Of a stretch of 49,758 bases of DNA, positions 26,709-38,179 are shown one piece after another. The stretch spans positions 1 to 49,758 of the forward strand of contig CAXHJY010000175.1 in the NCBI GenBank assembly GCA_964016885.1, written 5' to 3'. Source of the DNA: Eledone cirrhosa. Its lineage: Eukaryota. A program made the translations under genes and the position numbers. A model generated the notes under the pieces. That model was not told the DNA's origin. It was given only the letters and a program-made list of their open reading frames with translations, and searched no databases. Position 1 is the first letter of the stretch; the number at the start of each line of letters is the position of its first letter.

Positions 26709-26974
26709 TTTTCGTCTTCCTCAGCATCTAACTCTGCAACTATTCATTTACTAGTTTTTTCATACAATTTTTTCGTTGAAAAAAAAAACCATCAAGTCTG
26801 GAAAAAAAACCAAATTTATGTTCGATGTGATAAATATACTGTCTAAATCTCCCTAAAATTCCTTGCTTTCCTCTCTTTGAAAACATGAACTCTACGACGA
26901 AATATACAGGGAAATATACATGTTTATATATACATATATATATACATATATTTTTTTGCCATTAACATTACAAG

Positions 26975-27061
26975 GGGTCTGACGAGCCGTGGATTACAGA
27001 GTCGGGTCAGATCGATACAGATCGAACCTTGAGCTGATCAGTGGCGAAACGCGCGTCGCCC
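26975..27061 (+). ncRNA. Type-I hammerhead ribozyme with extended helix II (family A)
   Basis: gggt-CTGACGA(26979-85)-gccgtggatt..gatcagtggc-GAAAC-GCGC-GTC(27055-57)-gccc; AATAAA at 27065. Confidence 0.8.
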
Positions 27062-27315
27062 ACCAATAAACGTTATCTTATTTCACTATGTATATATATA
27101 TACACACATACACATTCGTACACACACATATAGATACACACAGCACTATTTATATACATATATAGTATTATATTTTCCTGTTAATCTTTATATGTGATGT
27201 AATACAATAAGGTCTCTAATAATGAAATATGGGAAACCCTTAATAAAGGAATGCAAACAGCTGTACCTTTGATATTTTTAATATAACTTGTTTCACAGAA
27301 ACAGTTCCCTTTATA

Positions 27316-38112: not shown

Positions 38113-38179
38113 TATTTTATCTGATGAGGACGTACTGTTGAAGTTAACTCAGTACCTCTGAAATATGTATAATAAAATA
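38113..38179 (+). ncRNA. Type-I hammerhead ribozyme (family B)
   Basis: Stem I tattttat/ataaaata (8 bp); CTGATGA 38121-27; stem II gga-c-gtactg/cagtac-c-tct; GAAA 38160-63; short near-palindromic helix III; AUA site. Confidence 0.75.

Follow-up and report, generated by a model that had tools for sequence, protein, structure and literature searches.

Why should a retrotransposon carry hammerhead ribozymes with a helix II of some 60 nt, and what keeps this arm so uniform? The question is raised by a 49,758-nt stretch of the Eledone cirrhosa genome (contig CAXHJY010000175.1), hereafter the window. The first-pass annotation of this window had reported two diverged hammerhead copies, at 26975 (+) and 41459 (−), whose helix II is extended by an insert of about 40 nt, and had proposed this insert as a selected structural domain with covarying pairs. 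Why Penelope-like elements (PLEs) keep hammerheads at all is called unclear in the available text of a survey of these elements (Craig et al. 2021, PMC8557442).

Hammerhead copies in the window

Both reported copies are present, 41459 being the 3′ end of the second. Copy 1 (26959..27089, +) is a 5′-truncated pLTR stub of a Hydra-type Penelope-like element, belongs to subfamily A1 and is bordered on either side by TA-rich microsatellites. The 5′ strand of its helix I (26974-26978) lies just upstream of the 5′ half of the core, CTGACGA (CUGACGA in RNA; 26979..26985), which is followed by the 60-nt helix II (26986..27045). The latter begins with a proximal 9-bp helix and a 2-nt bulge and continues into the 40-nt insert (26996-27035), an interrupted single rod with a 6-nt loop in the predicted fold. 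The conserved motif of the insert has its 5′ strand, CAGAGUCGGG, at 26997..27006 and its 3′ strand, CCUUGAGCUG, at 27027..27036. GAAA, the palindromic helix III ACGCGCGU and a GUC triplet occupy 27046..27057, the palindrome ACGCGCGT itself 27049-27056, and the cut is predicted after 27057. AATAAA (AAUAAA; 27065-27070), which starts 8 nt behind the predicted cut, is likely a poly(A) signal; in the A5 lineage it is replaced by AUUAAA, the second common poly(A) signal. Private to copy 1 is a deletion of ~27 nt that follows AATAAA, and helix I is altered at two positions of its 3′ strand.

Copy 2 (41415..41556, −) belongs to the older subfamily A2, with its core at 41542-41536, a helix II of likewise 60 nt at 41535-41476, the helix III palindrome at 41472-41465 and AATAAA at 41456-41451. 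It has the same palindrome ACGCGCGU and GUC triplet as copy 1, with AAUAAA again 8 nt further on, so that the downstream signal described for both copies is indeed common to them. The diverged 10-bp arms at the base of helix II, read from the sequence, still pair at nine of ten positions in each copy, and the two insert words singled out earlier are both there and pair with each other in the predicted fold. A third, more distant member, of subfamily B, had been overlooked (49225..49375, −). Its core reads CUGAGGA (49347-49341), its helix II of 62 nt (49340-49279) carries the same insert motif, and its palindrome ACAAUUGU (49275-49268) is followed by a GUA triplet and by AATAAA at 49259-49254. 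All three copies stand alone as decayed stubs and lack a partner in cis.

The type I order CUGANGA...GAAA...UH is found in all three window copies and in 11 of the 14 subfamilies described below. GAAACGCGCGUC is not distinctive on its own, since it is identical to the 3′ half of the Rfam Hammerhead_1 consensus (RF00163). With this family, only the 3′ half was aligned, at 12.8 bits against a gathering score of 34, and among the matches listed for a scan of the whole window against Rfam there were only microsatellite-driven miRNAs. Because such arms fall below Rfam's threshold, long-armed ribozymes are likely undercounted. The short hammerhead that Rfam aligned at 27028-27063 arises from a core-like word, CUGAUCA, in the 3′ arm of helix II; this segment repeats UGAGCU..AUCGAU of the 5′ side, and the arm may, judging from this repeat, have grown by duplication.

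The window contains further type I hammerheads of unrelated sequence at 38121 (+), 48509 (+), 38440 (+) and 38727 (−), with a helix II of 32, 32, 48 and 36 nt, respectively; the 36-nt family of 38727 (−) recurs in 10 genomic copies examined. Elsewhere, two hammerheads with a helix II of 52-53 nt, again of unrelated sequence (L104 and L119, both −), have 10-nt palindromes as helix III (ACCGCGCGGU and ACCGAUCGGU) and neighbour endonuclease copies. A 160-aa frame at 20784-21266 (+) of the window is reminiscent of the C-terminal restriction-like endonuclease of site-specific non-LTR retrotransposons.

Genome-wide copies and the carrier element

In the 3.0-Gb genome, the pattern CTGANGA-N55-65-GAAACGCGCGTC has 644 exact matches and its reversed control none, so the hammerhead pattern is not a product of chance; a pattern for the insert alone has 1,992 matches. 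As counts of exact patterns, these numbers are lower bounds and skewed to young copies. The window hammerheads belong to a Hydra-type Penelope-like retrotransposon, of which they are short 3′ stubs and which is present in the genome in thousands of copies. All data are drawn from this one genome; a metagenome scan for the motif gave two matches, neither with a hammerhead core and both judged to be chance, and thereby no second species. Three single distant copies, L295 (+, near 1736), L254 and L189 (−, near 491), have part of the basal motif with a different apical hairpin, and further subfamilies probably exist.

Upstream of the core, the copies have ~20-30 nt in common, and they terminate in (TA)n, with the 3′ end lying ~+50-60 or, where a tail is present, ~+150-160 behind the predicted cut. 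In longer copies, a repetitive 3′ UTR lies upstream and is preceded by a broken RT-endonuclease frame. The endonuclease is found 1.0-2.3 kb upstream of A1, A1b, A1c and A4 hammerheads and also upstream of A6 copies, and the link to the RT-endonuclease ORF is shown for A1, A1c, A4 and A6. At the expected place upstream of A2, A3, A5, B and C copies no ORF was found, and the parent of these older subfamilies, including that of window copy 2, is therefore assigned by homology. The most complete view of the protein comes from a sister copy, L138, whose 861-aa open frame, read by eye, contains YRDD, a GIY-YIG at the C terminus (IVY..YIG), the linker CNCKKRAEC (CxCx5C), CRLC..E and N..CRH (CxxC and CxH) and DKTG, with no CCHH; ILWRA stands at the likely place of the N-terminal RWK motif in the L138 sequence alone. 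This copy is interrupted before any hammerhead, and its 3′ UTR matches that of A6 copies. Pfam gave no hit on three pieces of the ORF; by its domain order and motif marks, the carrier would belong to the Hydra clade of PLEs. The reported identity as a PLE hammerhead is supported. A Naiad origin, suggested by 'HHR_half_core' rows for cephalopod Naiads, is excluded by the domain order, since Naiads carry their endonuclease at the N terminus and have no canonical hammerhead, and the endonuclease here is C-terminal. A non-LTR retrozyme is excluded by the lack of 150-450 bp head-to-tail repeats and the link of the hammerhead to an ORF.

The element comprises an ORF of 2.6 kb and a 3′ UTR of 1.0-2.3 kb or more. 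Across the loci L123-L162, the 3′ UTR grows along the lineage from ~1.1 kb in A1 to 1.5-2.3 kb or more in A6a and A6, through internal repeats and a microsatellite. The tails of L007, L033, L127, L134 and others contain, at their end, a second set of conserved words, GAGUGCUCA..GGUGAACC..CAGUAACU..UUACAC, at ~+105 to +160 behind the cut, common to A2, A3, A4, A1 and A6, while the sequence ahead of them differs; this set is a candidate RT start or binding signal. In locus L061, a different Hydra-like family is represented by an open RT frame of 410 aa (3289-4518, −), which lies directly upstream of an A1 element and adjoins a hammerhead-like motif with a helix II of ~38 nt.

In 29 of 46 A1 copies, the 5′ end falls 19-31 nt upstream of the core, where the word TCATT is found; this sample is partly biased, as the BLAST query included 19 nt from upstream. 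By prediction, TCATT can also pair with a downstream AAUGA, which offers a second explanation for its constancy. Among 198 loci, 27 opposite-strand pairs within 2.5 kb are listed, and in 8 of these the core starts are 46-58 nt apart, about twice the upstream distance of 19-31 nt. We infer from the 5′ pile-up and the pair spacing that the cDNAs extended to a constant 5′ end of the RNA, probably where transcription starts. Double copies on the same strand occur at 10 of the 198 loci, with irregular spacings of 203-4809 bp.

Selection on the insert

As inserted copies decay neutrally, we compared subfamily majorities rather than individual copies. Twelve majorities were built from 258 copies, and B and C were added from 30 loci each; A9 and A1i, seeds with 2 copies and 1 copy, were left out before counting. 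Probable CpG-decay letters occur in the majority of A3a, built from 7 copies, and in those of A7 and B. The A4 majority was built with the core left out of the selection, because a change of CCG to CTG is what CpG decay produces and choosing copies by CTGA would bias it.

In a parsimony count over the 14 subfamilies, the 20-nt insert motif, CAGAGUCRGG / CCYYGAGCUG, shows 6 changes (0.30 per site), with 14 of its 20 positions invariant, three unpaired purines among them, and the catalytic core 3 changes at 11 sites (0.27 per site). Helix I, with 21 changes at 12 sites (1.75 per site), and the proximal helix II, with 32 at 18 sites (1.78 per site), are far more variable; a 3x3 loop has 2.5 changes per site and the apical GAUC/GAUC 0.25. 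Since the motif changes as slowly as the catalytic core, the insert is, on this comparison of sequences, under selection. The first-pass annotation had allowed that the insert might be no more conserved than the flanking element sequence; it is far more so, the upstream and downstream flanks of distant subfamilies having an identity near that of shuffled sequence. Linked coding sequence gives the same contrast: between A1 and A6, 53 of 155 third codon positions differ, against 7 of 60 positions in helix II and 2 of 28 in a 28-nt block, and between A4 and A1, 157 of 468 coding sites differ against 1 of 28 in that block, the A4 coding sequence being a single copy with its own decay and possibly chimeric.

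These figures bear on the view that the arm is a neutral insertion, its conservation only apparent and due to young subfamilies or to the exchange of ribozyme cassettes. The restriction of the data to one genome and the modest folding scores given below would suit it. Yet interleaved positions in the same 80 nt, namely the proximal helix and the 3x3 loop, change 6-8 times faster, the linked protein-coding region has diverged more than the block, and the length of the arm is fixed within 3 nt. A cassette swap cannot explain an interleaving of fast and slow positions within 80 nt, and we consider the neutral view largely refuted and very improbable.

Predicted fold and covariation

Helix II measures 59-62 nt in all 14 subfamily majorities. 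All nine majorities folded first, and likewise B and C, adopt the same interrupted rod in prediction, in which the motif forms CAG/CUG, an AG/G internal loop that is invariant, UC/GA, a bulge of one base and RGG/CCY; of the 14 subfamilies, only 6 form the pair 29-48 and only 2 the pair 30-47. In this fold, the insert is no branched domain but continues helix II as a single rod. The folding z-scores are modest, at −1.70 for copy 1, −1.06 for copy 2, −1.41 for the insert of copy 1 alone and −1.1 to −2.7 for the arm across subfamilies. Compared with the monomer minimum, the hammerhead fold is 12-22 kcal/mol higher, a figure that omits flank structure and to which we give no weight. A k-turn or loop E did not fit the insert when compared by eye with the consensus, and a kissing loop is ruled out by the apical loop, which is the fastest-changing part and not consistently palindromic. 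The 5′ strand of the motif can pair with the downstream flank at p<=0.01 only in the 4 subfamilies of the A5 lineage among 11 examined.

Covariation is unevenly distributed over this structure. Two-sided changes affect 5 of 6 pairs in helix I, 5 of 9 in the proximal helix II and 2 of 4 in helix III, the latter counted as a dimer; in 14 real copies, 87.5% of cells are paired, against 26-36% in slid controls, the shuffle of the tool ignoring relatedness. Three helix III palindromes, ACGCGCGU, ACAUAUGU and ACAAUUGU, are related by two-sided changes that keep helix III palindromic, which is what the dimeric cleavage suggested earlier would predict. The covariation claimed for the helix II insert holds for the proximal 9 bp and is nearly absent from the insert itself, where one of 8 basal pairs is two-sided, through a G-U intermediate, and no double change falls on the same branch among 12 subfamilies. 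The notion of a selected structural domain can accordingly be upheld as to selection, whereas the insert is held by constancy of its sequence and is predicted to form one rod. We consider it plausible that the rod, as modelled, exists with its conserved part held by sequence; constancy without covariation would fit sequence-specific recognition.

Such recognition could in principle act on DNA, the constant words being a downstream promoter or transcription-factor site of the pLTR and the hairpin a by-product. PLE transcription begins in the upstream pLTR, according to the available text of PMC6765202, the 5′ ends of copies cluster just upstream of the core, and the paired positions are invariant rather than covarying, all of which a DNA site would explain. 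However, the constant words are complementary to each other and their changes mostly preserve pairing (A-U/G-U/G-C at 26-51 and U-A/A-U at 16-59). Changes also avoid the predicted paired positions (8/25 vs 20/15, p 0.002 on the A2 fold; p 0.007 on another fold and 0.14 on the A5 fold), and the distance from TCATT to the core varies between subfamilies (~18-26 nt). A role at the DNA level is therefore improbable in our estimation, and we return to a role of the RNA.

A subfamily with a decayed core

Copies anchored on the endonuclease uncovered a subfamily, A6, that reads CCGUCGA in place of CUGANGA. This core has 947 exact copies (control: 0) and was present at 17 of 30 loci that had been chosen irrespective of their core letters. 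With a divergence of 2.7-4.2% from its own majority, the lowest of all, A6 is the youngest subfamily. Non-consensus cores are also found in A6a, likewise CCGUCGA, and in A4, CCGACGA; since U4C thus marks A4 and A1 and A1c read CUGA, core position 4 has switched more than once. Long copies are commoner among A6-like than among A1-like loci (11 of 27 vs 5 of 55, p 0.002), the two samples having been drawn differently.

We infer that CCGUCGA cripples cleavage. A natural A6C hammerhead variant has low but detectable activity, as far as the available text of PMC3088659 goes, and by analogy CCGUCGA may still cleave slowly; a report on A6U in a hammerhead was not found in the literature. What happened to the arm after the core had decayed can be followed on the branch from the origin of CCGU to A6, where 48 of 153 third codon positions differ (~31%) and the motif together with GAAA, helix III and the triplet differs at 2 of 32 (P 7e-4 against third positions). 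Measured against the rate of the 3′ UTR (34/243, A6a-A6), this constancy is marginal (P 0.05). The first-pass annotation had named a tertiary contact, RT binding or a packaging signal as possible functions of the insert. That the arm persisted after the core had decayed speaks for a role beyond cleavage. The two changes observed in the motif region, however, both hit CAG/CUG, which is invariant in the other subfamilies, and this favours a tertiary role for that part.

Accordingly, a rival explanation confines selection to cleavage, as a dimer, with CCGUCGA weakly active: the internal loop would be a tertiary contact of the ribozyme that docks on an A-rich bulge of an extended helix I and replaces the contact between loops I and II. 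Type I hammerheads need a contact between helices I and II, as stated in the available portions of PMC3088659 and PMC7229834. The geometry would be suitable, as 9 bp and a bulge of 1-2 nt always separate the motif from the core, and AAUAAA/AUUAAA, predicted to be unpaired in the extended helix I, always begins 7-8 nt behind the cut; besides, CAG/CUG was altered only in the A6 lineage, and palindrome and GAAA were retained there. Against this, U4 switched between U and C repeatedly and A6 became U in a prolific subfamily, and the arm stayed. Helix I, the supposed docking partner, is the fastest-changing helix, down to 3-4 contiguous pairs in A1-A6, and the variation of AAUAAA to AUUAAA lets a poly(A) role explain its constancy without docking. 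Nor do the motif strands form a consistent duplex with the upstream flank (0 of 11 subfamilies at p<0.05). We regard a purely catalytic contact as less probable than the reading that follows, but as a strong contender and its main rival.

A possible role in copying

The reading that we favour, tentatively and at slightly less than even chances, is that the element's own protein binds the 20-nt motif when the RNA is copied, irrespective of cleavage. Transcription would start ~20-30 nt upstream of the core, so that the motif would stand at the 5′ end of the RNA and, in a partial tandem, again at its 3′ end, and the two copies could pair through the palindromic helix III. The ancestral dimer would have cleaved, and cleavage would be weak or dispensable in A6, with the fold and its purine-rich AG/G internal loop retained as a grip for the RT-endonuclease, for example in a template jump between the two RNA ends. 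The short stubs would then be cDNAs from internal start sites to the RNA 5′ end. Such a scaffold fits the results obtained with the Poseidon element of the green anole (available text of Frangieh et al. 2024, PMC11167929), where catalytic mutants had no effect on insertion in vitro and reverse transcription starts internally, at two sites matching the 'tail'. The same source also counts against a binding site in the arm: the minimal Poseidon template lies within the ORF's first 172 nt, and the element can do without the full pLTR. A further point against it is that, with flanks included in the folding, the basal pairs of the arm are of low probability in 5 of 11 subfamilies (A4, A7, A7b, A6a and A6).

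Taken further, this could be a hammerhead that changes its job: the RT would recognize the 60-nt arm, helix III would clamp the end repeats for the template jump, and catalysis would become dispensable, so that the youngest and most abundant subfamily could spread although its core is crippled, and more often in the form of long copies. We put this extended scenario forward as a speculation with rather poor prospects of being right in full. The value of the family is that a successful subfamily with two core changes makes the choice between cleavage and scaffold directly testable, and that the 14 subfamilies form a natural series in which core, arm and palindrome can be assayed against one another.

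Comparison with known systems

The closest relatives are the Hydra PLEs, as portrayed in the available text and File S2 of PMC8557442. They have the same C-terminal GIY-YIG, the CxCx5C linker and CxxC/CxH around E and N, likewise no CCHH, and likewise DKT, (TA)n insertion, pLTR stubs, 5′ inversions and a tail, as well as a type I hammerhead with a short self-complementary helix III near the 3′ end. They differ in that, by our count, the 26 Hydra rows of File S2 give 12-26 nt for the helix II region, against 59-62 nt here, that our youngest subfamily has a non-consensus core, and that they are typically <3 kb, a trait rather than a strict criterion, the present element being longer with its long repetitive 3′ UTR.

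The metazoan PLE hammerheads of Cervera and de la Pena (2014, PMC4209133; available text) share the location in the pLTR, the palindromic helix III and the occurrence as mostly single truncated copies plus opposite-strand pairs, and are predicted to cleave only as dimers and slowly. Their helix II, however, has 6-8 bp and is highly variable, whereas here it has ~22 bp and a motif as constant as the core. Judged by titles and the beginnings of abstracts, we found no conserved long helix II in animal PLEs in the literature. The motif is also absent from the other long-armed hammerheads (36-88 nt) among 395 sequences scanned, and since these were sampled without showing it, it is no general Hydra signal. 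Non-LTR retrozymes (available text of PMC7229834) are non-coding tandem arrays of 150-450 bp; the present element codes for protein and forms no such arrays.

A long PLE helix II as such has precedent, for two spike-moss PLE-X motifs in PMC8557442 reach ~50 nt: in File S2, the PLE-X1 hammerheads have ~48-54 nt between the core halves and are flagged as non-canonical, although they belong to a different clade and kingdom and are unrelated in sequence. The nearest functional parallel is the anole element PAc Poseidon, which, in the available text of PMC11167929, has two 3′ ends, with and without a tail, as does the element described here, and internal RT starts, which the latter would share. The anole hammerhead overlaps the start of the ORF, whereas the ribozyme here is located outside coding sequence. 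Protein binding in the anole element was mapped to the 5′ end of the ORF, whereas here it is the arm of the hammerhead that is under strong constraint.
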